Assembly (NCBI GenBank): GCA_964490365.1
Contig: CAZBAG010000002.1
Span: forward strand, 73,486 to 137,485
Direction: 5' to 3'
DNA: 64,000 bases
DNA from: an uncultured Candidatus Saccharibacteria bacterium
GTDB taxonomy: Bacteria > Patescibacteriota > Minisyncoccia > Phycocordibacterales > CSBR16-119
Shown here in pieces: positions 6,870 through 53,800 of this stretch. The notes under the pieces were generated by a model. The model was not told the origin of the DNA. It saw only the letters and a program-made list of their open reading frames with translations, and did not search any database. Within the stretch, counting starts at the first letter, position 1, and each line of letters starts with the position of its first letter. The position numbers and the translations under genes were made by a program.

Positions 6870-7862
6870 TTATTTTTGTATGCCTAAATGTGTATATGCT
6901 TTTTCTGTTGCAGTGCGTCCACGCGGTGTTCGTTCAAGAAGTCCAAGCTGGATAAGATATGGCTCGATCACTTCTTCAATAGTTGCTTCTTCTTCAGAGG
7001 TCGCCGCCGCTAGTGTGCCGAGCCCAACAGGTCCGCCATTAAATTTTTCTATAATTGTTTTGAGTACCAGTCTGTCTGACTCAAAGAGTCCGAGAACATC
7101 AACCCCTAACAGCTCAAGTGCTTTTTGTACATTTTCTTTGGTAAGGTTTTCTTTGTGTACTTGGGCGTAGTCTCGTGCGCGTTTCAAAAAGTAGTTTGCT
7201 GTTCGTGGTGTATACCGAGCTCGCTTGGCTATTTCTTCTACTGCGCCGGAATCTATCGTTGTTCCAAGTATGTCGCCAGCTCGCTTTACGATTTTTTTCA
7301 TTTCATCTTCTGTGTAAAATTCAAGTCGATGTACTCCGCCAGAAAATCGAGAACGTAATGGAGAAGAGATAAGCGCTGGTCTTGTGGTGGCAGCAATAAG
7401 CGTAAATGCTGGAAGATCTAGTTGGATGGTTCGGGCAGAAGGTCCTTTTCCAATGATGATATCGAGCACACCAGATTCCATAGCAGGGTAGAGAACCTCT
7501 TCAACCATTTTGTTGAGTCGGTGTATCTCGTCGATAAAAAGAATATCACCGGATGAAAGATTGGTAAGCACCGATGCAAGATCGCCAACCTTTTCGATAG
7601 CCGGACCTGACGTGATTTTCATTTGTTTGCCAGACTCTTTGGCAATCAGGTGTGCGAGTGTTGTTTTTCCAAGACCTGGTGGGCCATGAAATAAAATATG
7701 TTCAGGAACATGACCTCGTTCTTCAGCGGCTTGGAGTAAAATTTTTAAATTCTTTTTTATTTTTTCTTGCCCAATATATTCGTCCCATGTATGAGGGCGA
7801 AGCGTATTATCCAAAAAGCTGTCACTCTTTAATTCTTGACTAAAAGGTGTATCACTTGACAT
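6870..7862 (-). CDS. ruvB: Holliday junction branch migration helicase RuvB
   Basis: Walker A GPPGLGKTT, AAA+ sensor motifs, and a C-terminal winged-helix domain. Confidence 0.9.
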   Translation of the reverse strand: MSSDTPFSQELKSDSFLDNTLRPHTWDEYIGQEKIKKNLKILLQAAEERGHVPEHILFHGPPGLGKTTLAHLIAKESGKQMKITSGPAIEKVGDLASVLTNLSSGDILFIDEIHRLNKMVEEVLYPAMESGVLDIIIGKGPSARTIQLDLPAFTLIAATTRPALISSPLRSRFSGGVHRLEFYTEDEMKKIVKRAGDILGTTIDSGAVEEIAKRARYTPRTANYFLKRARDYAQVHKENLTKENVQKALELLGVDVLGLFESDRLVLKTIIEKFNGGPVGLGTLAAATSEEEATIEEVIEPYLIQLGLLERTPRGRTATEKAYTHLGIQK

Positions 7863-20096: not shown

Positions 20097-20325
20097 GTAT
20101 AATCTAATCTTCTAAATTACTAATAGTCTGATTTTAGGTGTTTTGGGCGCTTTTCGCAAGAAACAAAAATACTTAGCAAGGTTTGATGGTTTTCTCGGTA
20201 GATCGGTCACGAGTTACTAATTCCCTTCGGTCATAAGTACTCTCGACCCCGTCTCGCGATGCTCACAGGTTCGCATAACGCTCCGACCTTCGATTCCTAC
20301 ACGAAAGCAAAACTGTTTGCTTTCT

Positions 20326-20380
20326 CGAGAGGACAAAATGAAAAACCGCCTTACGGGCGGTTTTTCATTTTGTCCTCTCG
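20326..20380 (-). terminator. 25-bp perfect inverted repeat forming the tRNA-Lys trailer hairpin/terminator
   Basis: cgagaggacaaaatgaaaaaccgcc ttac ggcggtttttcattttgtcctctcg. One arm contains the tRNA-Lys 3' acceptor strand, and the other arm is an inverted copy of that 3' end. Confidence 0.55.
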
Positions 20381-20445
20381 GTAGGAATCGAACCTACGAC
20401 CGTCTCCTTAAAAGGGAGCTGCTCTACCAACTGAGCTACGAGAGG
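20373..20445 (-). tRNA. tRNA-Lys (anticodon TTT)
   Basis: Manual cloverleaf: acceptor cctctcg/cgagagg, D-arm gctcagttggtagagc, anticodon loop cttttaa, T-arm gtaggttcgattcctac. No CCA is encoded. Confidence 0.8.
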
Positions 20446-22745: not shown

Positions 22746-22940
22746 CTAGTTGTGTGTTGGCTGGATCACTTCTTCAAGGCCTGCTTCTTCTGTGCCTCCA
22801 TGTGCTGTTGTGCTGCTTCTGGCTTGCCACGCGTCTTCTGGTTCTTTTTCATTGTGCTCATGGTCTTCGCGAACCAGTTGTTGGTTATCTGTATGGCTCG
22901 AATAGCAAAAGGTGGAATTCTCGACAAGACTATTTACCAA
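22746..22940 (-). CDS. possible small acidic protein downstream of ruvA (TTG start)
   Basis: 64 aa, follows the ruvA stop by 10 nt. A perfect hairpin terminator lies immediately downstream (22717-22743 with an A run). The + strand ORFs over this region are Cys/Phe-rich antisense artefacts. Confidence 0.25.
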   Translation of the reverse strand: MVNSLVENSTFCYSSHTDNQQLVREDHEHNEKEPEDAWQARSSTTAHGGTEEAGLEEVIQPTHN

Positions 22941-23502
22941 GAATTTTAAGTGCCTGCTTTATCTTTTCGTTTGTCGAAAGTGAATGGTCAATTTCTTTTG
23001 TTGCATTTCGTGATTCATTTTGAGTGTAGCCGAGTGACATAAGAGCAAGAATAACATCTGCTTCACCTTTAAGTGCCCCAGACTCATCGTTATGTCCCAA
23101 ACTTGCAAGTTTGTCGCGCAGTTCTACAACTATTTTTTCTGCAGTCTTTTTACCAATACCAGAAACTTTTGTCATGTACGACATGTCGCCTGTCGCGATA
23201 GCTTTCTTTAGAGTTTCCATTGGAGCAATAGAAAGGATAGAAAGCGCATTCTTTGGTCCAATTCCTGAAACACTGATGAGTAGTTCAAAAAAGTTTTTCT
23301 CATCAATTGTTTGAAAGCCGTACAAGTCGAGTGCATTTTCTCGAACGGCTAAATATGTCCAGAGAGAAAACATTTCTCCAATAGAGGGCGAAGAGGAAAG
23401 TGTGTGTGTTGATGTAAAAATCAAATAGCCAACACTGTTTGCTTCAATAATTAAAAACTTGTTATTTTTTTCTAAAATTTTTCCTTGAATGTGGGCGATC
23501 AT
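22930..23502 (-). CDS. ruvA: Holliday junction DNA helicase RuvA
   Basis: MIAHIQGKI...VGYLIF OB-fold start and HhH motifs (GIGPKNA..., GIGKKTAEKI). Confidence 0.85.
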   Translation of the reverse strand: MIAHIQGKILEKNNKFLIIEANSVGYLIFTSTHTLSSSPSIGEMFSLWTYLAVRENALDLYGFQTIDEKNFFELLISVSGIGPKNALSILSIAPMETLKKAIATGDMSYMTKVSGIGKKTAEKIVVELRDKLASLGHNDESGALKGEADVILALMSLGYTQNESRNATKEIDHSLSTNEKIKQALKILGK

Positions 23503-24823: not shown

Positions 24824-24920
24824 TGTGCTCTCGGTAGGAATCGCCTCTCCCTTTGGTCGAAACGCACCATTTTTATAATCGCTTCGCTCTTTAAAAATGG
24901 GCGCCCTTGGTTCGATTCCT
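24824..24920 (-). repeat. tRNA-Arg-associated element copy 1: 20-nt direct duplicate of the tRNA 3' end plus an 84-bp conserved core
   Basis: tgtgctctcggtaggaatcg (24824-24843) repeats the tRNA-Arg 3' end at 24955-24974 with one mismatch. Bases 24837-24920 are 100% identical to 28901-28984. The core contains an imperfect hairpin (gcaccatttttat...aaaaatgggcgc) and terminal inverted ggaatcg/cgattcc. Confidence 0.7.
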
Positions 24921-24956
24921 ACCGTAAGTATAAAACTTACTTTGTTCATCCATCTG

Positions 24957-25028
24957 TGCTCTCGGCAGGAATCGAACCTACATTTTAACTTCCGCAAAGT
25001 CATGTCCTATCCATTGAACGACGAGAGC
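24957..25028 (-). tRNA. tRNA-Arg (anticodon reads GCG)
   Basis: Manual cloverleaf: acceptor gctctcg/cgagagc, D-arm gttcaatggataggac, anticodon stem tgact/agtta with loop ttgcgga, T-arm gtaggttcgattcctgc. Confidence 0.65.
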
Positions 25029-25560: not shown

Positions 25561-25620
25561 TTGTATTTTATCAGATTACTATGAAAGACTACAGAAAATA
25601 TGTCTGTTGAAAAACAAAAA

Positions 25621-25657
25621 CCGGAGTTAATCCGGTTTTTGTTTTTTGCGGAGGCGG
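25621..25657 (-). terminator. terminator after tRNA-Ser
   Basis: aaaaaccggagttaatccggttttt. Confidence 0.55.
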
Positions 25658-28378: not shown

Positions 28379-28732
28379 ATGGAACAAGGCCCTAATCCAA
28401 TACAAAGAATACGTGAACGTATTTCTCCTGAAACAAAACAGCGGGTTGCTTTAAGTATAGAAGAAGCCAACGAACGAAAGAAAAAAGTTGATTCTCTCAT
28501 GGAAAAAATACAAGAAAAGCAAATGCAAAAAGTTCATGTAAATTTTATTCTGTTGAATTCTGGATTACCTCATGACTTTATTCAAGGATACTTCACGGGC
28601 GATGAAGACTATCTGTATACCACTGACTACGACTTAAATAATCTGAAGATTATAGAAGAAGGGGTTGATAATTTTGATATAAAAAGAGACGAAGGTAAGA
28701 TGTTTCCAACTTCAGGCCATCACCATAATTAA
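28379..28732 (+). CDS. hypothetical protein
   Basis: 117 aa with no TM helix and no recognisable motif. C-terminal His run. Confidence 0.3.
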   Translation: MEQGPNPIQRIRERISPETKQRVALSIEEANERKKKVDSLMEKIQEKQMQKVHVNFILLNSGLPHDFIQGYFTGDEDYLYTTDYDLNNLKIIEEGVDNFDIKRDEGKMFPTSGHHHN

Positions 28733-28737
28733 ACTAA

Positions 28738-28763
28738 AAGACTCGCATATGCGAGTCTTTTAG
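28738..28763. terminator. bidirectional terminator
   Basis: aaaagactcgcatatgcgagtctttt. Confidence 0.6.
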
Positions 28764-28766
28764 TTT

Positions 28767-28885: not shown

Positions 28886-28984
28886 CTTGTCCCCTCGGCA
28901 GGAATCGCCTCTCCCTTTGGTCGAAACGCACCATTTTTATAATCGCTTCGCTCTTTAAAAATGGGCGCCCTTGGTTCGATTCCT
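28886..28984 (-). repeat. tRNA-Arg-associated element copy 2: 22-nt direct duplicate of the tRNA-Arg(TCT) 3' end plus the same 84-bp core
   Basis: cttgtcccctcggcaggaatcg at 28886-28907 is identical to 29009-29030. Bases 28901-28984 are identical to 24837-24920. Confidence 0.7.
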
Positions 28985-29012
28985 TTCGAATGTTTGTAAC
29001 ACATCGGCCTTG

Positions 29013-29084
29013 TCCCCTCGGCAGGAATCGAACCTACATCGAGACCTTAGAAGAGTCCTGTTCTATCCATTGAACTACGAGGGG
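29013..29084 (-). tRNA. tRNA-Arg (anticodon TCT)
   Basis: Acceptor cccctcg/cgagggg, D-arm gttcaatggatagaac, anticodon loop cttctaa, T-arm gtaggttcgattcctgc. Confidence 0.8.
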
Positions 29085-30629: not shown

Positions 30630-32333
30630 ATGACTATTGCAGAAATCCCTGAAAAATTAGATAAAGAATTGGCACGATATTCTCCACTTATCCGTAGACT
30701 TCTTGTAAATAGAAATATAACAACAGCAGAAGAGGCGAGAGCCTTCATGTTTCCTTCATACGAAGATGATGTTCATGATCCATTTTTAATGAAAAATATG
30801 GAAGGTGTTGTTTCTCGGATTTATACTGCGATACAGAATAATGAAAAAATTGTCGTATATTCAGACTACGACTGCGACGGTATTCCAGGCGCGGTGATTA
30901 TGCATGAATTTTTTAAAACTGTTGGTTACACGAATTTTGAAGTGTATATTCCTGATCGACACAAAGAAGGATACGGTTTAAATGCTGATGCGGTTCGTCA
31001 GATTGTAAAAGATGGGGCACAACTTTTAATAACACTCGATCTTGGTATTACCGCAGTAGCGGAAACAACACTCGCAAAAAGTTTAGGTATGGATGTGATT
31101 ATTACCGACCACCACCAACCCCAAGAACAACTTCCCGAAGCTCTTTTTATCTTAAACCCAAAACAAGAAGGTGATAGGTATCCTGACAAGATGCTCTGCG
31201 GTTCTGGAGTTGCTTTCAAATGCATACAATCATTTTTAAAAACATATGGAAAAGAATTTGGTGTGAAAGAAGGTTACGAAAAATGGATGCTCGACATGGT
31301 TGGTCTTGCAACTCTTGCTGACATGGTGCCACTACGAAATGAAAATCGGGTGTTCGCATATTATGGTTTAAAAGTTTTAAGAAAAACAAAACGTCTTGGA
31401 CTTCTGAAACTTTTTAGAAAGACATCACTGAAACCTGAAACACTTCAAGACGAAGATATTACATTTACGATTTGTCCTCGTCTAAATGCAGCAGGAAGAA
31501 TGGATCATCCTCGCTATGCGTTCGACCTACTTGTTGCAGACAATGAAGACGCAGCTGAAACATCAGCTGCGTATCTTACGAAAATAAATAATGAACGTAA
31601 AACGCTTGTTGCTACGATGATGCGATCGGTGCACAAAGAGGTTTCGGCACGACAAAAAGATTTCTCTGTTATTTGCATTGGTGACACAACATGGCGAGCG
31701 GGTGTGCTTGGTCTTGTTGCAGGAAAGATTGTTGATGAATATAAGAAGCCAGCTTTTGTGTGGGGGCTTGAAGGTGGTGAAACAATAAAAGGTTCGTGTC
31801 GTTCGTCTGGCGAAGTAAATCTTGTAGACATGATGACACTTCTTCCTGAAAATAGCTTGCTTGAATTTGGTGGTCACGAGATGGCTGGAGGTTTTTCGGT
31901 TTCTCGTGAAGAAATTCATTTCCTTGAAGAAAGGTTAGAGGAGGCGTATCAAAATACTCCCAAAAAAGAAGTTTCACGAAATGAGGAAGTTCTTGTTGAT
32001 GCAGAGCTTTCTCTCGATGAGGTGCGCAAAGATGTATTTGAAGAAATTAATATGTTGGCACCATTTGGTGTTGCAAATCCAAAACCAGTTTTTCTATTTC
32101 CGAGCATTGAAGTTTCTGAAGTGCGAACATTTGGAAAAAATAATGAACACATCGAGCTATCATTTAAAAACTCAAAAGGAAAAATAGTAAAGGCTATTCA
32201 ATTTTTTAAATCGTTTCACAGTCTTCCTTCTCATGTTCGAGCAGGGAATAATATTAATTTGAAGGCACATATTGAAAAATCTACATTTGGATGGAAAGAA
32301 GAGATACGACTTCGGATAGTTGAGATTTCTTAA
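30630..32333 (+). CDS. recJ: single-stranded-DNA-specific exonuclease RecJ
   Basis: DHH motifs (DYDCDGIPGA, ITDHHQP) and a DHHA1 C-terminal domain. 567 aa. Confidence 0.85.
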   Translation: MTIAEIPEKLDKELARYSPLIRRLLVNRNITTAEEARAFMFPSYEDDVHDPFLMKNMEGVVSRIYTAIQNNEKIVVYSDYDCDGIPGAVIMHEFFKTVGYTNFEVYIPDRHKEGYGLNADAVRQIVKDGAQLLITLDLGITAVAETTLAKSLGMDVIITDHHQPQEQLPEALFILNPKQEGDRYPDKMLCGSGVAFKCIQSFLKTYGKEFGVKEGYEKWMLDMVGLATLADMVPLRNENRVFAYYGLKVLRKTKRLGLLKLFRKTSLKPETLQDEDITFTICPRLNAAGRMDHPRYAFDLLVADNEDAAETSAAYLTKINNERKTLVATMMRSVHKEVSARQKDFSVICIGDTTWRAGVLGLVAGKIVDEYKKPAFVWGLEGGETIKGSCRSSGEVNLVDMMTLLPENSLLEFGGHEMAGGFSVSREEIHFLEERLEEAYQNTPKKEVSRNEEVLVDAELSLDEVRKDVFEEINMLAPFGVANPKPVFLFPSIEVSEVRTFGKNNEHIELSFKNSKGKIVKAIQFFKSFHSLPSHVRAGNNINLKAHIEKSTFGWKEEIRLRIVEIS

Positions 32334-32366
32334 AGAGGGTGGTATTCTGTTTAAAATTTCACGACC

Positions 32367-32753
32367 ATGGAAATGCTCCTTCAGTTGGTTCTTATTTTTC
32401 TTTGTTTTTTCCTTGGATGGATAGCACATGGATCACATAGACTGTTGAATACATATTCCCAATCCAGTAGGCTTGCTCTTGTGTCGTTGGTATATCTCAT
32501 CTTGATTCCAGCGCCTTTGTTTCTCTATGAAGAGAAGGTCTCATCAATTATCATGATGACTGCTTTACTTGTAGAGTATTCAATCAGTACATTCATGGCA
32601 GATGAAAAGATGCACGAAGAGCACTCCGTTACCTACAAGGCTCAGAAAGAAATGAAGAAGAGGTTTAAGCAAGAGCGAAGAGAAGCTCTCCAGATCTCTA
32701 GGCAGAGAAAAAACGAAACAGTGCAAATGTCGCACATCCAAGACCAGCTTTGA
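32367..32753 (+). CDS. hypothetical membrane protein
   Basis: Three predicted TM helices followed by a basic C-terminal tail. Confidence 0.35.
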   Translation: MEMLLQLVLIFLCFFLGWIAHGSHRLLNTYSQSSRLALVSLVYLILIPAPLFLYEEKVSSIIMMTALLVEYSISTFMADEKMHEEHSVTYKAQKEMKKRFKQERREALQISRQRKNETVQMSHIQDQL

Positions 32754-32776
32754 GGCTGGTCTTTTTCTTTGGTACA

Positions 32777-33493
32777 ATGACTTCAATGTCAGAGAATATA
32801 CAAGAGATAAAAATCTTTACTGATGGTGGTGCAATCGGGAATCCTGGTCCTGGTGGATGGGGGGCAATCATCTTGAATGAAACTTCAAAGAAGGTGATTG
32901 AACTCGGTGGCAAAGAAGACAAGACAACCAACAATCGAATGGAGATGATGGCAATTGTCCAAGCACTCAAATATTCTCCAGACGGGCTAATTACTATCTA
33001 CTCAGATTCAAAATACACTATTACTGGTATCACTCAGTGGGTGTTTGGTTGGGAGAAAAATAATTGGAAGACAAAAAACAAAACTGATGTACTCAATAAA
33101 GATCTATGGCAAGCGTTGATTGAAGTTACAAAAGATAAAGAAATCGAATGGAAGCATGTTGAGGGTCATGTTGGTATTGCTGGAAACGAAAGAGTAGACA
33201 CTATTGCCAACTCATTTGCGCGGGGTAACGAAGTTTCTCTTTTTAATGGTGATCTCAAAGAATATTCAGTGAATCTTCTTGATATGAAAAAAAATGAAGC
33301 TGCGGCTTCACAAAAAGCAAAAGCTAAATCAAGTGCAAAAGCCTACTCGTACATCAGTATGATTGATGGAAAAATTGAAAAGCATACTACCTGGGCAGAA
33401 TGTGAAGCGAGAGTAAAAGGTAAAAAGGCCAGATTCAAAAAAACTCTTTCAAAAGAAGACGAAGAAAAAATTATTAGTGAATGGATTAAGTAA
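32777..33493 (+). CDS. rnhA: ribonuclease HI with C-terminal hybrid-binding (Cauli_VI-like) domain
   Basis: RNase H core (IFTDGGAIGNPGPGGWGAIIL, MEMMAIVQAL, IYSDSKY, HVGIAGNERVD). C-terminal YSYISMIDGKIEKHTTWAECEARVKGKKARFKKTLSKEDEEKI matches the RNase H1 N-terminal hybrid-binding domain pattern. The start was trimmed to MTSMSE. Confidence 0.75.
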   Translation: MTSMSENIQEIKIFTDGGAIGNPGPGGWGAIILNETSKKVIELGGKEDKTTNNRMEMMAIVQALKYSPDGLITIYSDSKYTITGITQWVFGWEKNNWKTKNKTDVLNKDLWQALIEVTKDKEIEWKHVEGHVGIAGNERVDTIANSFARGNEVSLFNGDLKEYSVNLLDMKKNEAAASQKAKAKSSAKAYSYISMIDGKIEKHTTWAECEARVKGKKARFKKTLSKEDEEKIISEWIK

Positions 33494-33498
33494 CCTCT

Positions 33499-34962
33499 AT
33501 GAGGGATACTATTATTTTTGTTAGCACCTTCTCGTTTTTAGGAGGTGTTTTTCTGAGTTCTATTTTTACGATACCTACTGAATATTTTTGGATATTTGGT
33601 GTAGTGTTCGTAGTGCTTATTGTCAGTTTTTTCTTGCTTCGAAAAAAGACATTACTACTTGTTTCGTGTGGTGTACTTTTTGTATTTCTTGGAATTTTTC
33701 GTTTTCATCATAAAGACATTCGTGAGCCAAAAACTATTTTTGACGATATTGTTGGAAGTGAAGTACAGTTTGAAGGCGTGATACAGCAGGACCCCGATAG
33801 AAGGGAAAATAATCAAAGAGTTATTGTTGGTTTTGAAGGTGTTGACGTTCTTGTTTCTACTGAGCTGTATCCTGAATTTACCTACGGTGATCTTGTCCAA
33901 GTTTCTGGTGTGCTCGAAAAGCCAGAAAATTTTAAGACAGATATTGGGAAAGAATTTGATTACATCCACTATCTTTCAAAAGATAGTATTTATTACACTA
34001 TTTCATACGGGGATGTCACACTTGTTTCAAGTGGTCATGGAAGTGGATTTATGAGTGTTGTTCTTAAGACAAAACATACCTTACTTAATACACTAGAAAA
34101 AATTATTCCACCTCCACAAAGTTCGCTCTTGGGAGGCTTGTTACTTGGAACAAAGCAATCACTTGGAAAAGATTTAGAGCAACGTTTTATTGATACTGGG
34201 CTGATCCATATTGTTGTTTTGTCTGGGTATAACGTTACGATTGTTGCAGAAGCAATTATGCGACTACTTTCTTTTTTACCGCTCGTTGCTAGTGTCGCGA
34301 CAGGGTCGCTTGCCATTGTGTTGTTCGCGCTTATGACGGGTGCCGGGGCAACGATTGTTCGAGCCAGTATTATGGCGATTATTGCCCTTATTGCACGAGC
34401 AACGGGAAATGCTTTTCACATGACTCGAGCACTCATGTTTGCTGGATTCCTCATGGTTCTTCATAATCCATACATTCTCTACTTCGATCTTTCTTTTCAG
34501 CTTTCTTTTTTGGCGACCCTTGGACTTATCTATCTTTCACCACTCTTTGAGAAATATTTCCAGTGGCTTCCTAAAAAGTTTGGACTTCGAGAAATTGCCT
34601 CTGCAACACTTGCTACACAAATTTTTGTATTGCCATTTATTCTCTACACTATGGGCACCCTTTCTCTCATTGCACCGTTTACCAACCTCCTTGTATTGCC
34701 ATTTGTGCCACTCACCATGTTCTTTGGCTTTCTTACTGGGCTTGTCGGACTACTATCTCCAATAGTTGCTATACCGTTTGGCTTTGTTGTAAACGTGCTT
34801 CTTAAGTTTGAAATAGCTGTTGTTACGCTTTTTTCAAAATTACAATTTGCGGTGATGGAGGTAAAAAATTTCCCACTATGGCTTGCGCTGGTTGTATACC
34901 TCATTATCTTTTGGTTTTTGTATAAACAGTATAAAATTTATTCTAATGAACAGAGAACATAA
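33499..34962 (+). CDS. comEC: ComEC/Rec2 competence channel protein (DUF4131 + Competence domain portion)
   Basis: Multi-TM protein. SLLGGLLLGTKQSLGKDLEQRFIDTGLIHIVVLSGYNVTIV is the Competence-domain signature. Confidence 0.75.
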   Translation: MRDTIIFVSTFSFLGGVFLSSIFTIPTEYFWIFGVVFVVLIVSFFLLRKKTLLLVSCGVLFVFLGIFRFHHKDIREPKTIFDDIVGSEVQFEGVIQQDPDRRENNQRVIVGFEGVDVLVSTELYPEFTYGDLVQVSGVLEKPENFKTDIGKEFDYIHYLSKDSIYYTISYGDVTLVSSGHGSGFMSVVLKTKHTLLNTLEKIIPPPQSSLLGGLLLGTKQSLGKDLEQRFIDTGLIHIVVLSGYNVTIVAEAIMRLLSFLPLVASVATGSLAIVLFALMTGAGATIVRASIMAIIALIARATGNAFHMTRALMFAGFLMVLHNPYILYFDLSFQLSFLATLGLIYLSPLFEKYFQWLPKKFGLREIASATLATQIFVLPFILYTMGTLSLIAPFTNLLVLPFVPLTMFFGFLTGLVGLLSPIVAIPFGFVVNVLLKFEIAVVTLFSKLQFAVMEVKNFPLWLALVVYLIIFWFLYKQYKIYSNEQRT

Positions 34963-35803
34963 ACTTTTTATTGTCTCAATCCTACTTCTTGTTGGTATAA
35001 ATATTTTTGTATGGAGTTATACTCCACAAGCGCCTGATACTACGCTCACCGTTTCATTTCTTGACGTTGGACAAGGAGACGCTGTTTTTATTGAAGTCCC
35101 GAATGGCAAGCAAATGCTTATCGATGGAGGTAAAAATAGTTCCATGCTTTCTGCACTCGGAGAGCAGATCGATTTTCAAGATAGGGACATAGATGTTGTA
35201 TTGGTAACACATCCACATGCTGACCATATTGGTGGTTTACCTGAAGTATTTGACCGTTTTAATGTTCACTATTTTATTGATACAGGATTAGCAGGGGAAG
35301 ATAACACCTATCGAACACTCATAGATAAAGTTTCCTCAGAGACTTCAGTGTACAAAAAGGGTGAAAGGGGACTTACAATTATTTTAGATAAAAAGAATGG
35401 AGTATATTTTCAAATATTGGCTCCTGATGAACGATTTAACTACAAAGATCCAAACGATATGTCTATTGTGGGAAGGCTTGTCTATAAAGATTCGAGCTTT
35501 CTGCTGACCGGTGACGCTTCAAAAGCAATTGAAAATATTCTCGTGTATTCAGACGGAAATCTTCTCGACAGCGATATTTTAAAAGCCGGTCACCATGGGT
35601 CAAAAACTGCTTCAGGACTTTTATTTCTCGAAACGGTAACACCAGACGCTTCTATAATTTCAGCGAGTTCGGATAATAGTTATGGGCATCCACATATAAG
35701 CGTTCTTCAAAACTTAGAGTCGGTCGGTTCAGAAATCCTTGAAACATCAAAAGAGGGAACAATAACGTTTGAGACAGACGGCACAACTATTTGGAGAAAA
35801 TAA
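34946..35803 (+). CDS. membrane-anchored metallo-beta-lactamase fold protein (ComEC C-terminal domain as a separate ORF)
   Basis: N-terminal TM helix. SFLDVGQGDAVFIE...VLVTHPHADHIGG MBL motifs. It overlaps the channel ORF by 17 nt and is in a different frame. Confidence 0.7.
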   Translation: MNREHKLFIVSILLLVGINIFVWSYTPQAPDTTLTVSFLDVGQGDAVFIEVPNGKQMLIDGGKNSSMLSALGEQIDFQDRDIDVVLVTHPHADHIGGLPEVFDRFNVHYFIDTGLAGEDNTYRTLIDKVSSETSVYKKGERGLTIILDKKNGVYFQILAPDERFNYKDPNDMSIVGRLVYKDSSFLLTGDASKAIENILVYSDGNLLDSDILKAGHHGSKTASGLLFLETVTPDASIISASSDNSYGHPHISVLQNLESVGSEILETSKEGTITFETDGTTIWRK

Positions 35804-38015: not shown

Positions 38016-38097
38016 GCCCAGGTGTTGAAACTGGTAGACAAGCTACCTTGAGGTGGTAGTGCTGTGAGGCGTGGAGGTTCGAGTCCTCTCCTGGGCA
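38016..38097 (+). tRNA. tRNA-Leu (anticodon GAG), long variable arm
   Basis: Acceptor gcccagg/cctgggc, anticodon stem ctacc/ggtag with loop ttgaggt, variable arm gctgtgaggcgt, T-arm ggaggttcgagtcctct. 82 nt. Confidence 0.8.
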
Positions 38098-38104
38098 CAA
38101 AAAA

Positions 38105-38136
38105 TATCCCGAATTTTTTCGGGTTTTATTTTTTGG
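38105..38136 (+). terminator. terminator after tRNA-Leu
   Basis: cccgaattttttcggg followed by a T run. Confidence 0.5.
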
Positions 38137-38219
38137 TGAGAGGACTCGAAGACCTTTTGAGCTTTTTTGTGAGTGAAACGAACACAAGAGCCAAAAGGTG
38201 TACTGCTCCTGTAAGGAGA

Positions 38220-38239
38220 GAGTCCTCTCCTGGGCACAA
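38220..38239 (+). repeat. 20-nt direct duplicate of the tRNA-Leu 3' end
   Basis: gagtcctctcctgggcacaa is identical to 38081-38100, the 3' end of tRNA-Leu plus 3 nt of trailer. An inverted T-arm-like fragment (gagaggactcgaagacc) lies between the two copies. Confidence 0.65.
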
Positions 38240-38316
38240 CATGAATTTGTAAATACTCCGCTTAGGAGTATTTTTGCTATACTAATATCTGTAGATAATT
38301 AATAGAGATAATTAAT

Positions 38317-47878: not shown

Positions 47879-50800
47879 TTGTATATGAAGTTACAAAAAG
47901 CATTCTTTCTTGTTCTCGGCCTCGCCTTTTTGGTGTCGCTGGGTTCTTTAGTTTCTGGGGCACCTGGTCAAAAAGCTCAAGTAGTTAGTGGACAAAACTC
48001 TATTGGTGTTACATCACCATCAACAAGCACTATTGTAGCAGCAGGGCAATCTGTTCCTACAACATGTCAGTATGCTACGGCGTCTGGATTCTCAGTAACG
48101 ACACTTCAGTGGTCAGCTGAGACGACAAATGATCTCGAAACACCTATTACAAGTATGGTTCCAACTGGAGCAACAGGATCTGAAACAAGAAATATCGTAG
48201 TTCCTGTTGGCGGCACTGGCTCTGTCATCTTAAAGTGTTATGCTGAATACGCAAATGCTTCTACAGGTGTTGAAATGCAAATTGCATCTCAAAGAGTTCT
48301 CAATATCTCTGGAACTGTAACACCTCCAACAAACGACACCACAGCACCTACTGTTCCATCAGGACTTACTGTAACTGCAACAAGTTACTCAAGTCTTACA
48401 CTTAACTGGACAGCATCCACAGATGCAGGTGGTGTAGCTTCATACGAGATCTTCCGAAACAATGGAGGGTCAACAGCAATCAATACAACAACTCCTATCG
48501 CTGTAGTTAATCATCCAACAACTACATATCTAAACTCAGGTCTTCTTGCGAATAAGACATATAAATATAGAATACGAGCAAAGGATACAGCGGGAAACGT
48601 TTCATCACTTACTTCAACAGTAAGTCGAACAACTCTCGCTATTGGTATACCAACAAACGTTACCATTACCAATCCAACAACTTCATCTCTTACGGTAAAC
48701 TGGACAGCGCCAACAAGTGGAGCATACGAATATGCAATTTTTGCAAACAACGGTGGTACCACAGCAATCAATACAACAACTCCTATTGCAACAGTTCCAG
48801 CGGGTGTAACAACATACACACGAACAGGACTTACTCCTGCAACTTCATATAAATTTAGAGTAGCAGCCCTTACTGATGCGGGTAGTCGATCATCTCTTAC
48901 AACTGTGAAAACAGGCGTGACAGCAAGTAGTGGACCATCTGACACCACCGCCCCAACAGTAACCATCACAGCTCCAACTGCTTCACAAGTTCTTGCAGCA
49001 GGTACTACTTCTACAAACCTTACGGTTACCACAAACGAGAATGCAACCTGTAAATGGTCAACAACCAACACAGCATACGCAAGTATGACCAACACCATGA
49101 CAGGATCTGGTTCTACTTCACACTCAGCTTCTCAAACAGGTCTTACCAATGGAACATCATACACACGATACGTATCATGTGCTGATACAGCAGGTAATGC
49201 TTCGACAACACAAAGTAGAGCGTTTAGTGTGGGATCTCCAGTTGCTGATACTACTGCACCAACATTCTCTGGTCTTGCAGCAACAGCTTCAACGGTAAAC
49301 TCAGTTACTCTTGATTGGTCAGATTCTACAGATCCTTCATCTCCGGTGACCTATAAGATTTACCGAAGCACAACTCAAACAGGAACATTTACTCAAGTTG
49401 GAGGAACTCTTTCAACAAGTGCATTTGTTGATTCTGGTCTTACTGCTTCAACAACATATTGGTATAAAGGAGTTGCTTGTGATGCGGTCAACAATTGTTC
49501 AGCTCAAAGTGCGGCGGTAAGCCGAGCAACAACTGCTGCTCCTGACACCACCGCCCCAACAGTAACCATCACAGCTCCAACTGCTTCACAAGTTCTTGCA
49601 GCAGGTACTACTTCTACAAACCTTACGGTTACCACAAACGAGAATGCAACCTGTAAATGGTCAACAACCAACACAGCATACGCAAGTATGACCAACACCA
49701 TGACAGGATCTGGTTCTACTTCACACTCAGCTTCTCAAACAGGTCTTACCAATGGAACATCATACACACGATACGTATCATGTGCTGATACAGCAGGTAA
49801 TGCTTCGACAACACAAAGTAGAGCGTTTAGTGTGGCTCTTGCAGCGCCAAGTGCACCAACCGGTGTAACAGTTGGCTCTCCAACAACTTCATCTCTTGTT
49901 GTAAACTGGACAGCAGTAACTAGTGCAACATCATACAAAGTCTATCGAGTTGCTTCAAACGGTCTTGTTGATGGGACTATTCCAGCGCTTACAGTTGCAA
50001 CACCAAACGTATCAACAACCGTTACAGGGCTTTCATCTGGTACCGCATACCGATTCCTCGTAACAGCAGTGAACTCTGTAGGCGAATCAACACTAACTCC
50101 AAGTGGAACAAACAATGCAAGTGCAACAACATCTTCACCACAAATTACTGTTTCATCACTTGAACTTGTTCGAACAAACGGAACAGTTGTTGAATCACTC
50201 GATGGAGGAGAATCAATTAACGTTGGAACTCAAAATGGAGGAGTGGGTCCAAACATTTCAGTACGAGCAAGCACAAACCCAGCTACTCCAGGAAGTGTTG
50301 TATTCTCTCTCCAAAAACCAAACAGTACAACACACACACTTACTGAAAACTCTGCGCCATATACGTTGTTCGGCGACACCAGTGACACAGTGATTGTTGC
50401 TTGGCAAAACCTTCTTCCAGGAGGATATACACTAACTGTAACTCCATACGCAGGTACAAATGGAACAGGACAAGTTGGAGTACCACGAACAGTGCAATTC
50501 CAAATTGTAAACAATGATGACACCACAGCACCAGTAAACCCAACAAACGTTGCGATTACGTATCGATCAGCATCTCAACTTAAAGTTGGATGGACTAATT
50601 CAACATCATCTGATGTTGCTTCATATCGAGTCTACCGAGACAACGTTTCTATGGGTGTTGTGAATCATCCAACAAATACATTTACTGATACATCAGTAAA
50701 TGCGACAGGAAACTATGTATACAAAGCAGTAGCAATTGACACATCAAACAATGAAGCAACTCTTCCAGGAACTGGTGTAACTTCGCCAACACTTTCTACA

Positions 50801-53800
50801 GCCTTCGTACTTAACAATCAAGTAGAAACAAATACAAGTGCTCAGGTTAAATCAGCACCTGAATCAACAACTGTTGCTGGTACACAAGCAACAGGTTCTA
50901 TTGGAACAATAACAAACGGACCAGTATGGGTAACAGGCGGTGTTCAACACTGGTATGTTAACTTTAACTCAGGTACTGATGGTTGGGTAAACCAAGCTAA
51001 TCTTGACCTCTATACAGCACCAACAACTGATACTACTGCGCCAGCATATCCAGGAGGAAATGCAGCATTTACCGTAACAGCAGGATCACAAACATCACTC
51101 GTCCTTGATTGGGCAGATGCAACAGACGCAACAGCTCCAGTAACATATAAAGTTTCAAGAAGTACTTCTGCAAGTGGACCATTTACTCAAGTTTCTCCAG
51201 CATTCACAGCAAGTACCTTTAACGACAACAACGCTGGTCTTACCGCAGGATCAACACGATACTACCAATTGATTGCTTGTGACGCCGTAACGCCAACTCA
51301 AAACTGTACAACACCAATTGTTCAAGGGGGTACAACTTCACCTGTTGTTGATACGACTGCTCCAACAGTAACGATTTCAGCGCCAACAGCAAATGAAGTA
51401 TTCCCATCAGGAACAACCAACGCAACACTTACTGTTTCTACGAACGAACCAGCAACCTGTAAATGGTCAACAACCAACACAGCATACGCAAGTATGACCA
51501 ACACCATGACAGGATCTGGTTCTACTTCACACTCAGCTTCTCAAACAGGTCTTACCAATGGAACATCATACACACGATACGTATCATGTGCTGATACAGC
51601 AGGTAATGCTTCGACAACACAAAGTAGAGCGTTTAGTGTGGCCGTGTTTGTTCCTGACACAACAGCTCCAGCCGGAACCTTAAACCCAGTAGTAGGTTCT
51701 CCTACATCAAGTAGTCTCACTGTTTCTTGGTCAGCTCTTACCGATTCAACAACACCAATTAACTACCGACTCTACCGAAGCACAACTCAAACAGGAACAT
51801 TTACACAAGTTGGTGGAAATATTACTGGTACATCATATGTTGACACTGGACGATCTGCTTCAACAACATATTGGTATAAAGTAGATGCCTGTGATAGTGC
51901 TACGACACCAAACTGTACTTCTCAATCAGCGGCAGTAAGTGGAACAACTGTTTCAGAGGGAACTGAACCACCAATTACTACAACATGTCCTACAATGCCT
52001 TCAATTACTGGAGACATTCACACACAAAAAGCAGTACAACTATGTGCAGAAATTTCAAACAACCCAAATAGAATCACTCTTAAGTGGGCAAACGTTTCAG
52101 GAAGAACGCAAACAAGTGCAACAATCTCAAGAAAAGCTGGCCTAGCTTCAACCTCATTCACTTCACTAGGAACAGTATCAGGTAATGCAACAAGTTACGT
52201 TGATAACACTGCGGTTGCTGGAACATACTATGAATACAAGGTTCAAGTAAACTCAAATGCATACGGATATATTGCTGCTGGAATCAATGTTCCTCAAGAA
52301 TCATATCGAGGTAAAATGGTTCTTGTTATCGACAACACATTCCAAACATCACTCGCATCACAAATTAGCACACTCGTAGATGACCTTACAGCTGATAAAT
52401 GGGTGGTAATACCAAAATATGTAAGTCGAAGTGATACACCAACAACAGTTCGAAATGCTATTAAAGCAGAATACGATGCCGATCCAACAAACGTAAAGGC
52501 CGTATATCTTCTTGGACACGTTCCTGTTCCACGAGCTGGAAACTTCAATGGTGATGGACATGGATCACGTGCGCTTTCAACTGATACATATTATGGAGAA
52601 ATGACTCAAGAGTTCAATAAACTCTCAAATGGATGTACACCATATACAGAAATCTCAAACATACCAGCTGGCCCGTCTGATTGGAGTCTATCGCCGATAA
52701 ACTACTCTCAATGGCAAAGTCCATATCAAGTGAGTTCATTTATGCCAATTCCACCAACGACTCATAAATTCTGTCTTACAAGTGGTCAAACTCCTTCTGC
52801 TCTTGAACTGCAAGTTGGACGAGTAGATATGTTTGCGCTTACAGTCTATAGTCAATCAGAACAAACACTACTTTCAAACTATCTAACAAAAGCAAGAGAA
52901 TTTAAGAGAAAAGTGTGGACACCGGTAAAAAGAGCATTTATCCGAGATGGACTTATCTATCAAGGATATGATGGAGGTAAGTTCGTATGGGGGATGTTGC
53001 CATCTATTGTTGGACCACTTGTCGGATCAAACATTACGGCAGATAACGGTGTAAGTAGTATGGCCGCAATGAACACGGCAACATCAAGTGCAAATACATA
53101 CTTGTTTACGTCGTTACGATACGGAGGTACAACAACTGCTGTTGACTATGCTGGAGGTACGGCTCTTGGTAGTAGTTATACACATGCATCATCAGGATTT
53201 GAAATGGGTGGTGTGTTTAATCAATATGTAGCAAGTTATATTCCAGAATGGGGAGACTATAATGCACTTCTTCGAGCCGCTCTTGCTGATGGTAAGGCTC
53301 TCGCTTCTATGCATGGTGATGACCGAAACTGGTACTTGCATTCAATGGGTCTTGGTCAAAATATTGGTTACGCAGGTAAGATGACTGTAAATAACACAAC
53401 CTCACTATATGTTCCAGTCGGAGGTATCTGGGATAGCAACTATGGCGGTAATGGGTTTATGTCACTTCTTGGCGATCCATCACTACGAGCTGAATATGTT
53501 GCTCCGGTTTCTTCTCTCACACTTTCAAACAGCTCTGGTAAGACAGCAATGTCATGGCCAGCAGCTTCAAGTGCTACTCATGGGTATAATGTATACAAAA
53601 TAACTTCAGGTGGTATTACAAAACTTAATGGAGCACCGATCACAGGAACAAGTTACACTTCAACAGATAACTATACTTCAGGAAACAAATACATGGTTAC
53701 TGCAGTAAAACTTGAAACAACAAACGGTGGAACATATTACAATGAATCGCTTGGTGCAATTGCAACAGTCGGTGGGGTGGCCTCAGATACGACGGCCCCC

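Follow-up and report, generated by a model that had tools for sequence, protein, structure and literature searches.

Structured elements flanked by copies of the neighbouring tRNA 3' end lie downstream of tRNA genes in Patescibacteria

The duplicated tRNA 3' ends found in a 64-kb stretch of DNA (the window, meaning the whole stretch analysed) are the arms of structured non-coding elements of ~100–190 nt that lie downstream of a tRNA and on its strand. ARAGORN detected seven tRNAs in the window. Downstream of four of them, tRNA-Leu, tRNA-Lys, tRNA-Arg(GCG) and tRNA-Arg(TCT), an inverted and then a direct copy of the tRNA's own T-loop-to-3'-end sequence is present, which bears out an earlier note that had counted a second 3'-end copy at four of seven tRNAs. 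The inverted copy lies 27–71 nt past the tRNA end and the direct copy 104–170 nt past it, with a core of 65–85 nt separating the two. No such pair of copies follows tRNA-Ser, tRNA-Val or tRNA-His of the window. A terminator or spacer may intervene between the tRNA and the inverted copy (the 5' arm), and the direct copy (the 3' arm) extends from the T-loop to just beyond the discriminator. The cores belong to types A, B and C in the window, and to at least five types in related loci.

Elements downstream of four tRNAs

At tRNA-Leu, the 20-mer GAGTCCTCTCCTGGGCACAA is found at 38081–38100 and at 38220–38239 and nowhere else in the 64 kb. The earlier note had reported this duplication and held that the pattern at four of seven tRNAs was not due to chance; the 20-mer had no match in 100 shuffles, even when two mismatches were allowed. 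The inverted T-arm fragment that had been described between the two copies is equally exact, GAGAGGACTCGAA (38138–38150) being the reverse complement of tRNA-Leu 38078–38090, which comprises T-loop and T-stem 3' strand. The features of this type-C locus are the following:

38016–38098, plus strand: tRNA-Leu(GAG), the intact host tRNA (ARAGORN; 47.4 bits with the Rfam tRNA model)
38081–38100, plus strand: copy 1 of the 20-mer, within the functional tRNA (G57 of the T-loop, T-stem 3' strand, acceptor 3' strand, N73, CAA)
38108–38135, no strand assigned: T1, a bidirectional terminator-like hairpin CCCGAATTTTTTCGGG (hairpin 38108–38123) with a T-tract
38136–38150, plus strand: 5' arm, consisting of a GT linker and then GAGAGGACTCGAA, which is exactly complementary to tRNA positions 54–66
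38152–38199, plus strand: Pb, the variable long type-C hairpin ACCUUUUG...CAAAAGGU, with the apex GA-GU-GAA-AC-GA
38195–38218, plus strand: conserved core AAGGTGTACTG, then the Pc hairpin CTCC-TGTAA-GGAG, a motif found in at least 120 metagenome stretches
38220–38239, plus strand: copy 2 of the 20-mer, forming the P1 3' arm and an unpaired acceptor-3' tail
38251–38275, plus strand: T2, the original tRNA-Leu terminator AAATACTCCG..CGGAGTATTTTT, whose orthologue directly follows the tRNA in the related locus L001

The tRNA-Leu gene does not encode CCA and ends in ...GGGCA-CAA. Pairing of the 5' arm with copy 2 forms P1, and the fold of the element has a z-score of −4.7.

The tRNA-Lys element is of type A:

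20372–20445, minus strand: tRNA-Lys(UUU), the host tRNA (ARAGORN)
20188–20371, minus strand: the type-A element after tRNA-Lys, with the parts listed below
20335–20371, minus strand: terminator
20326–20334, minus strand: acceptor complement GTCCTCTCG, complementary to the tRNA 3' end
20304–20323, minus strand: side hairpin
20289–20300, minus strand: T-arm complement GTAGGAATCGAA, a second inverted piece
20207–20288, minus strand: core ..CGGAGCG..GGGGTCGAGAGTACTTATGA..GAATTAGTAACTCGTGAC
20188–20206, minus strand: decayed direct copy CCGATCTACCGAGAAAACC

The trailer of tRNA-Lys forms the perfect 25-bp hairpin (20326–20380) that had been described, and its far arm complements the tRNA 3' end. This element keeps the full 5' scaffold. 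Its 5' arm remains a perfect match to the tRNA despite the decay of copy 2, which shows that P1 pairing with copy 2 is not maintained in every case. The second inverted piece and the degenerate direct copy at this tRNA had been missed in the first reading of the sequence.

The two tRNA-Arg elements are of type B:

24956–25028, minus strand: tRNA-Arg(GCG), host tRNA (ARAGORN)
24824–24923, minus strand: type-B element after tRNA-Arg(GCG)
24909–24923, minus strand: its 5' arm, the inverted copy GGTAGGAATCGAACC
24844–24908, minus strand: its core
24824–24843, minus strand: its direct copy CGATTCCTACCGAGAGCACA, with one mismatch
29012–29084, minus strand: tRNA-Arg(UCU) (gene anticodon TCT), host tRNA (ARAGORN)
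28886–28984, minus strand: type-B element between tRNA-Arg(UCU) and tRNA-Val, with no flanking terminator
28973–28984, minus strand: its 5' arm, the inverted copy
28908–28972, minus strand: its core, 100% identical to the tRNA-Arg(GCG) core
28886–28907, minus strand: its direct copy, 22 nt

Identity between the two Arg elements is 100% over 63 nt of core and 91% over 113 nt; their 3' arms differ, each following its own tRNA (GAGAGCAC versus GAGGGGAC). Both keep the hairpin and the T-arm complement, and in both the acceptor complement and the terminator are absent.

A conserved module on a tRNA-like handle

The type-C module is a three-way junction with near-invariant junction nucleotides, AAGGUGUACUG and CCUGUAAGG. 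An exact pattern with 20 specified bases, AAGGTGTACTGNNCCTGTAAGG (window 38195–38216), was found in at least 120 metagenome stretches, and occurs once in the window even when three mismatches are allowed. The closing helix P1 is arbitrary in sequence. Between P1 and Pb the junction reads (C)GAA(A/G)A, and between Pb and Pc it reads GUACUG. Pb (ACCUU...AAGGU) had 74 distinct interiors with a mean z of −3.9, 94% of them below −2. In Pc (NNCC-UGUAA-GGNN), the outer two pairs were changed on both sides, with pairing kept, in 18 and 10 of 37 sequences. In its long form, the module is extended by (G)GUGAG and one more hairpin. Pc was considered as a substrate mimic for the queuosine enzyme (TGT) on account of its loop UGU, an idea that was dropped because the loop can be closed to 5 nt and support is lacking.

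A tRNA lies within 300 nt of 57 type-C modules. Of these, 52 share the strand of the tRNA (43 downstream of it, 9 upstream), and 5 lie on the opposite strand. The 43 downstream modules represent about 20 tRNA specificities, and each time the arms match the module's own tRNA. Rfam 15 scans of the window and 20 related loci at gathering thresholds returned only tRNA and rRNA, and scans by E-value (20000–40200 at E≤5; 38095–38245 at E≤10) gave nothing but weak hits to unrelated families, all below threshold (best E 0.016). Covariance models of the hammerhead, twister, twister-sister, pistol, hatchet and HDV-like ribozymes in Rfam gave no match, and no description of these elements was found in the full-text literature.

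In full-length relatives, the tRNA is followed by a bidirectional terminator, by a stretch exactly complementary to the acceptor 3' strand, N73 and C(CA), and by AG. Next come a 9-bp hairpin (loop CURC), a GT dinucleotide, the T-stem 5' strand with AATCGAA, and the module; the 3' strands of T-stem and acceptor, N73 and C then lead into the original flank. The side hairpin has 33 distinct stems among 36, with only G.T mismatches in an unbiased count. In one full-length relative (L145; z = −7.6), the fold consists of an acceptor-like stem, the side hairpin and a T-like stem bearing the module. As modelled, P1 of the full-length relatives rebuilds an acceptor stem on the T-stem, the side hairpin takes the place of the D and anticodon arms, and the module sits at the T-loop position. 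This stack of acceptor and T-stem with a contiguous 3' strand, of the kind seen in t-elements, is present in the full-length relatives and partly at the window tRNA-Lys; the Leu and Arg elements have its T-stem/T-loop part only. The tRNA-Leu element, which keeps the GT linker and the T-arm complement and lacks the acceptor complement and side hairpin of the full-length relatives, is a trimmed copy that retains only P1 of the handle.

At 11 of 12 positions where the acceptor stem of the tRNA has a G.U pair, the base in the 5' arm is the Watson-Crick partner of the 3' strand. The 5' arm is therefore derived from the 3' strand or selected against it, and is not a copy of the 5' half. An origin of the arm from a tandem tRNA-gene duplicate was rejected on these same 11 positions. 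Other origins were also tried. A T-loop intron was rejected since in-silico excision of 88 modules gave no tRNA detectable by ARAGORN and the upstream tRNA is already complete; a general target-site duplication was rejected since modules away from tRNAs have P1 and no flank repeats; and retro-copying of the mature tRNA was rejected since copy 2 has no CCA wherever the gene has none. Fold-back synthesis from perfect terminator palindromes was weakened by tRNA-Ser and tRNA-Val, which have equally perfect palindromes and no element.

The element family is widespread in Patescibacteria (CPR bacteria), with about one tRNA in ten affected in related loci. These loci were gathered via the L19 gene (rplS), which adjoins tRNA-Leu; the best was 85% identical, and all came from Patescibacteria metagenome-assembled genomes (Paceibacteria/Parcubacteria, Yanofskybacteria and similar). 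The inverted-then-direct layout of a tRNA's own 3' end was found at about 17 of 186 tRNAs in these relatives (Arg, Val, Lys, Leu, His, Phe and Ile), and nothing comparable was found in the upstream flanks of the same tRNAs, which gave a few matches of 11–13 nt, all from adjacent tRNA genes. In a second, independent set, a downstream match of at least 12 nt was found at 5 of 58 tRNAs, versus 0 of 58 in the upstream control. The complement of the last 9 nt of the acceptor 3' end lies just past the terminator at 24 of 294 tRNAs, where it forms hairpins of 25–30 bp, and a reversed-word control gave 0 of 294. Comparison with related genomes had been called for in the earlier note, which offered a genome-specific trailer structure as one of its readings; the trailer structure comes near to the reading that we prefer below, and its restriction to one genome is contradicted by the ~10% of tRNAs that carry elements in related loci.

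Empty and filled sites

At the empty tRNA-Leu site of L001, the gene is directly followed by the AAATACTCCG..CGGAGTATTTTT terminator and then by a gene of the vitamin K epoxide reductase family (VKOR). In the window, the orthologous terminator is located after copy 2, and another terminator directly follows tRNA-Leu. Because of this displacement, the 139 bp at tRNA-Leu represent an insertion, and T1, which is absent from the empty site, was part of the inserted DNA. A third state of the same tRNA is found in L002 and L012, whose tRNA-Leu(GAG) is followed by a type-A core where the window has type C, and whose repeat spans about 45–48 nt and includes CCA and the terminator; in L037, the tRNA-Leu site is empty and has the same terminator as L002 and L012. 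To judge from these alleles, tRNA-Leu(GAG) sites were probably colonised independently by type-A and type-C cores.

L005 has an empty tRNA-Arg(UCU) site, and an element occupies this site in the window, L003 and L037. The orthologous cores there are 92–95% identical, the adjacent spacer is unalignable, and one minihairpin has undergone a compensatory change from CC/GG to CT/AG. The retention of cores and pairing beside a diverged spacer points to purifying selection on structure. In L006, an Arg(UCU) and a Val element share a core at 94.5% identity and have different arms. Taken together, these comparisons show that the elements are accessory and indicate that, once present, they are held under structural constraint.

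Repeat lengths vary, from 20 nt (Leu) and 22 nt (Arg(UCU)) up to about 48 nt, with the right end at +1 to +30. Nested cores occur in L009 and in L146 and L156, and L202 holds a tandem array of modules in 105-nt units. Modules are also located in the leader of an rRNA (L099) and in the gap separating rplK from rplA. Nesting, tandem arrays, presence or absence, and exchange of cores at one site look like mobile or modular behaviour.

No integrase, transposase, reverse transcriptase or recombinase was found among the 30 window ORFs scanned, which are housekeeping genes, including those for ComEC, RecJ, RuvAB and RNase H. The neighbours of 120 loci likewise contained no recurrent recombinase, transposase or reverse transcriptase and no co-travelling protein family; the largest neighbour cluster, present at 7 of the 120 loci, includes a predicted PD-(D/E)xK nuclease (YraN-like), and the others are housekeeping genes. 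In viral contigs, the patterns of types A, B and C gave only chance matches in coding sequence, with no evident carriage by phages.

Candidate explanations and known systems

Folds of the sense strand are more stable than those of the antisense strand (−20.5 versus −18.2 kcal/mol, p = 1e-9) and are richer in G.U pairs (54 versus 34, p = 0.012), and 52 of the 57 modules near a tRNA share its strand. No terminator separates tRNA-Arg(UCU), its element and tRNA-Val. Sense-fold stability, G.U count, tRNA-linked orientation and the Arg-Val unit favour a transcribed RNA. A promoter scan found no promoter-like site belonging to any of the window elements, in keeping with transcription from the tRNA.

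Our leading explanation, to which we assign a probability of roughly 0.5, is that each element is an accessory structured RNA co-transcribed with its tRNA, with a tRNA-mimicking handle that recruits tRNA-end processing and arms templated from the local 3' strand. The element would be transcribed with the tRNA, or by read-through from it, and would fold on the sense strand. By analogy with the t-elements of plant mitochondria, the handle could let RNase P, RNase Z and the CCA-adding enzyme excise and stabilise the module RNA. In this view, an inverted duplication or a template switch at the palindromes of the terminator or the T-loop would copy the local tRNA 3' strand and so create the arms or keep them in agreement with the tRNA; the arms would not be carried as a transposase-defined end. 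Terminators stand between tRNA and element at Leu and Lys, so transcription there requires read-through, and the Leu and Arg copies of the window lack the acceptor complement, so that they fit processing by RNase P and RNase Z poorly.

The t-elements of plant mitochondria undergo cleavage by RNase P and RNase Z and receive a CCA tail, but are not aminoacylated (PMC1920247, PMC11658184). Like the elements described here, they are partial tRNA mimics made of acceptor-stem and T-arm sequence; they lie within longer transcripts, beside other genes (PMC1920247, PMC11658184). Our full-length relatives share their strand topology, in which the acceptor 5' strand is followed by an insert, the T-stem 5' strand and a loop, and then by unbroken T-stem 3' and acceptor 3' strands. 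The present elements differ in that the mimic is an exact copy of the adjacent cognate tRNA, the 5' strand is a Watson-Crick complement and not a diverged copy, a conserved module of 65–130 nt replaces the T-loop, and processing is putative.

Some of this evidence also weighs on the other side. The sense bias is modest and would be the same in single-stranded DNA of that strand. The arms are not G.U-tolerant, and minihairpins of GCGAAGC type recur; a single-stranded-DNA hairpin accounts for these two features as well as or better than RNA does. A structure in single-stranded DNA of the same strand also fits the data, and would suit the Watson-Crick arms and the minihairpins of GCGAAGC type. 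Such minihairpins (C-GAA-G) are classically known as exceptionally stable in DNA.

A more tentative extension, which we regard as possible, is that the elements constitute an undescribed class of tRNA-anchored CPR RNA, in which interchangeable catalytic or protein-binding modules occupy the T-loop position of a handle copied from the 3' strand of the adjacent tRNA. Type C, with its invariant junction nucleotides and its tandem arrays of 105-nt units, could then be, for example, a new small self-cleaving ribozyme, and spread might be RNA-templated or hairpin-templated, with no element-encoded protein.

The main rival to the co-transcribed RNA, which we rate as less likely, is a mobile element that moves as a single-stranded-DNA hairpin, in the manner of integron attC or CTX-phage attP sites: the R':R arm duplex would mimic the 3' end of the tRNA gene, and a host recombinase would act in trans. 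Integration would leave the tRNA with copy 1, a spacer, the inverted arm, the core loop and copy 2, which is the order seen, with the ancestral flank and T2 after copy 2 and T1 new. The exact Watson-Crick complementarity of the 5' arm at 11 of 12 informative positions agrees with this, as do the very stable DNA tips of GCGAAGC type and the presence/absence, nesting and tandem arrays of elements. At Arg(GCG), copy 2 reads CCTAC, as in the L003 and L005 orthologues, and copy 1 reads CCTGC, like the Arg(UCU) element. In genes co-oriented with replication, the sense strand serves as template for the lagging strand, which would also count in favour of the hairpin if these tRNA genes are so oriented. 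Weighing against it, neither the scanned window ORFs nor the recurrent neighbours include a recombinase or an HUH or Y1 transposase; arms made for one tRNA would wreck another on integration, and cores occur with ~20 tRNA types; the right end of the repeat is variable (+1 to +30); and orthologous cores with compensatory changes beside diverging spacers are unexpected for inert DNA. The known attC and attP(+) sites are alike in their succession of repeat, spacer, inverted arm, variable loop and repeat, in their size of about 60–150 nt, and in a stem that mimics a duplex target; unlike them, the present elements have no IntI or XerCD candidate in the window, arms that differ with each tRNA, and a loop that is itself a conserved multi-helix structure.

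Next to these, we think it improbable that the elements serve as a cis-acting device of the tRNA trailer, in which the inverted copy competes with the tRNA 5' strand for the acceptor 3' strand and so tunes termination, 3' processing or quality control. Such a device would explain why 24 of 294 tRNAs have an exact complement of their last 9 nt just past the terminator, why the Lys 5' arm is perfect in spite of the decayed copy 2, and why L023 has the extended palindrome without a module; RNAfold of tRNA plus element also predicts alternative pairings (tRNA stem, extended terminator or P1). Close relatives, however, have the same tRNAs without an element, modules also lie away from tRNAs, in tandem arrays, in the rRNA leader and between rplK and rplA, and the Arg elements have neither acceptor complement nor terminator.

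Still harder to sustain is a retro-element, or templated cDNA, in which a reverse transcriptase self-primes on the terminated pre-tRNA (U-tract on A-tract), copies as far as the T-loop and switches to a module RNA, with the product then recombining. The inverted copy does begin just after the terminator T-tract and end in the T-loop, and the repeat in L002 and L012 ends in the terminator T-tract, the end point of a terminated transcript. Copy 2, on the other hand, is usually without CCA at genes that do not encode it, and mature tRNA was thus not the template; long perfect terminator palindromes at tRNA ends (tRNA-Ser, tRNA-Val) are general in this genome. Group II introns are reported to be absent from 95 complete Patescibacteria genomes (PMC13011429), and the neighbours of the 120 loci include no reverse transcriptase near the elements.

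Islands that integrate at the T-loop sublocation are characteristically marked by a direct repeat of the tRNA 3' segment that starts in the T-loop. The earlier note had accordingly suggested repeated integration and excision at tRNA 3' ends. The part of this proposal that stands is the insertion at tRNA 3' ends, as empty and filled Leu and Arg(TCT) sites attest. Classical attL/attR scars of integrase-bearing islands or prophages are essentially excluded, despite the direct T-loop-to-3' repeats and the filled and empty sites: the inserts are 100–190 bp long and non-coding, without an ORF, the scanned window ORFs include no integrase, the repeat ranges from 20 to ~48 nt, the inverted copy is always there, viral contigs gave only chance coding matches, and the interior is no decayed island DNA, being a structured module that is conserved, co-varies and recurs in distant genomes and in at least 120 metagenome stretches. 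Known tRNA-gene islands and prophages thus resemble the elements in that a T-loop-to-3' direct repeat brackets the insert, the tRNA stays intact and both filled and empty alleles exist; they differ from them in the small non-coding insert, the missing integrase, the obligatory inverted copy, the structured interior and the variable repeat.

Group IIC introns insert after terminators. A group IIC intron was nevertheless rejected, as the element is too small, there is no Rfam group II match and group II introns are reported to be absent from the phylum (PMC13011429). Group I introns of Patescibacteria tRNA genes lie in the anticodon loop and measure at least 200 nt (PMC13011429). They too are structured RNA insertions tied to tRNA genes in the same phylum (PMC13011429), whereas the present elements lie outside an intact tRNA, deletion of the module rebuilds no tRNA, and no match to Intron_gpI was found.

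With MITEs and REP-like repeats (Rickettsia palindromic elements, Correia elements), the elements have in common that they are small, non-coding, structured and polymorphic, form several families, can be nested or in tandem, and occupy intergenic or stable-RNA positions. They differ in having only one or two copies per core type in 64 kb and a core conserved across distant genomes. The constant terminal inverted repeats of MITEs are missing because the arms derive from the host tRNA, and in place of a target duplication of fixed length, repeats of 20, 22 and about 45–48 nt were found, with none at modules away from tRNAs.

Patescibacteria genomes are about 1 Mb in size, with little spare DNA. 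Despite these tiny genomes, about one in ten tRNAs in these lineages, and four of seven in the window, bear elements of 100–190 nt, and the type-C core ranks with the most conserved non-coding motifs while having no Rfam family. If the elements are RNAs, they would form a new, abundant family of structured RNA with a built-in tRNA mimic, and would offer a way into the RNA processing of an uncultivated phylum. As DNA elements, they would instead target tRNA genes in a new way, without an element-encoded enzyme. In practice, the elements could pass for pseudo-tRNAs, or for att sites in island prediction, and they break assemblies at tRNA loci: when strain-level empty alleles were sought by exact protein look-ups of the loci, the contigs broke at the tRNA locus.

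Tandem and nested modules

Tandem modules were observed in related loci (stretches from related genomes and metagenomes, designated by L-numbers). In L202 (7900-8420, minus strand), at least four identical copies of the type-C module, the three-way junction found downstream of the window tRNA-Leu, are arranged in tandem with a unit of 105 nt, the closing helix of each being formed by GAAAGCAAA/TTTGCTTTC. The array is followed by one diverged module, CAACCT-AAACAG-CTTCTGTAAGAAG. By analogy, this array resembles the multimeric arrays of small self-cleaving ribozymes and those of type III antitoxin RNAs.

Two elements also follow one another after tRNA-Val in L009 (7500-8056, minus strand). The second has the type-A core known from the window tRNA-Lys, with a long-form type-C module, which carries (G)GUGAG and a further hairpin, nested within one of the type-A hairpins. 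At L037 (7860-7920), the type-B element of tRNA-Arg(UCU) has part of its 3′ stem and flank duplicated internally (∼50 nt).

Possible rearrangements at tRNA genes

The arrangement at L085 (12500-13050, minus strand) is the mirror image of that in the window: two partial 5′ copies of tRNA-Ala (positions 1-47) lie upstream of the intact tRNA-Ala, and each is followed by a long-form module. In L162 (10560-10900), a tRNA-Gln gene appears to be interrupted within the anticodon region. The insert would consist of an intact tRNA-Gln(CTG) and a long-form module, and the displaced tRNA-Gln 3′ half, including the full T-arm, lies 3′ of the module.

The two copies of the window tRNA-Arg(GCG) 3′ end differ in the T-stem. 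The displaced copy (24824-24843) reads CCTAC, as do the L003 and L005 orthologues, and the functional tRNA (24966-24985) reads CCTGC, the same as tRNA-Arg(UCU) and the Arg(UCU) element. This distribution hints that the present 3′ part of tRNA-Arg(GCG) derives from gene conversion or from the element donor.

Four samples yielded independent Logan assemblies of the window strain (L205-L209). All of these break within tRNA-Leu, at window position ∼38043, and one of them restarts within the type-C module, at 38192. Strain heterogeneity at this locus could explain the breaks, as could repeats that interrupt the assembly graph there.

Terminators, minihairpins and modules outside tRNA loci

Long perfect palindromes form the terminators of two window tRNAs, tRNA-Ser and tRNA-Val. 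Their A-tract, stem and T-tract are fully complementary, and they start exactly at the tRNA end:

25600-25647, terminator of tRNA-Ser
28720-28766, terminator of tRNA-Val

A long perfect palindrome abutting the tRNA appears to be the general terminator style of this genome. An extended version was found at tRNA-Gly(GCC) in L023 (13441-13560), with 26-nt arms and no mismatches, comprising the acceptor 3′ strand plus CCA, the terminator and the exact complement. No module lies 3′ of this palindrome, which may represent either a precursor stage or a remnant.

All core types have hairpins topped by the minihairpin GA-NN-GAA-NN-GA, often GAGCGAAGCGA (for example, at window 24869-24898 and 38170-38183, and in L116 and L137). 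At some loci it stands immediately 3′ of the tRNA, replacing the terminator.

The rplK-rplA intergenic region recurrently contains a type-C module (L092, L125, L134, L158 and L175), located ∼58 nt past the L11 gene and with its first hairpin overlapping the rplK stop codon; L125 carries two module variants in tandem. Instead of a chance insertion, this module could represent a conserved site of regulation or processing. In L099 (1-821, minus strand), the rRNA leader contains a long-form module, ∼280 nt 5′ of the 16S rRNA start and on the rRNA strand.

Protein-coding genes in the window

The following protein-coding features were recorded:

6870-7862, RuvB, apart from the ComEC region
22930-23502, RuvA, likewise apart from it
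30630-33493, RecJ and RNase H, immediately 5′ of the ComEC ORFs
33499-35803, plus strand, ComEC, as two overlapping ORFs
47885-56224, plus strand, a 2779-aa ORF with internal repeats

One ComEC ORF bears the DUF4131 and Competence domains and the other the metallo-beta-lactamase domain. The 2779-aa ORF, with repeats of 300 nt (83-97% identity) and 177 nt (75% identity), probably encodes a giant repetitive surface protein.
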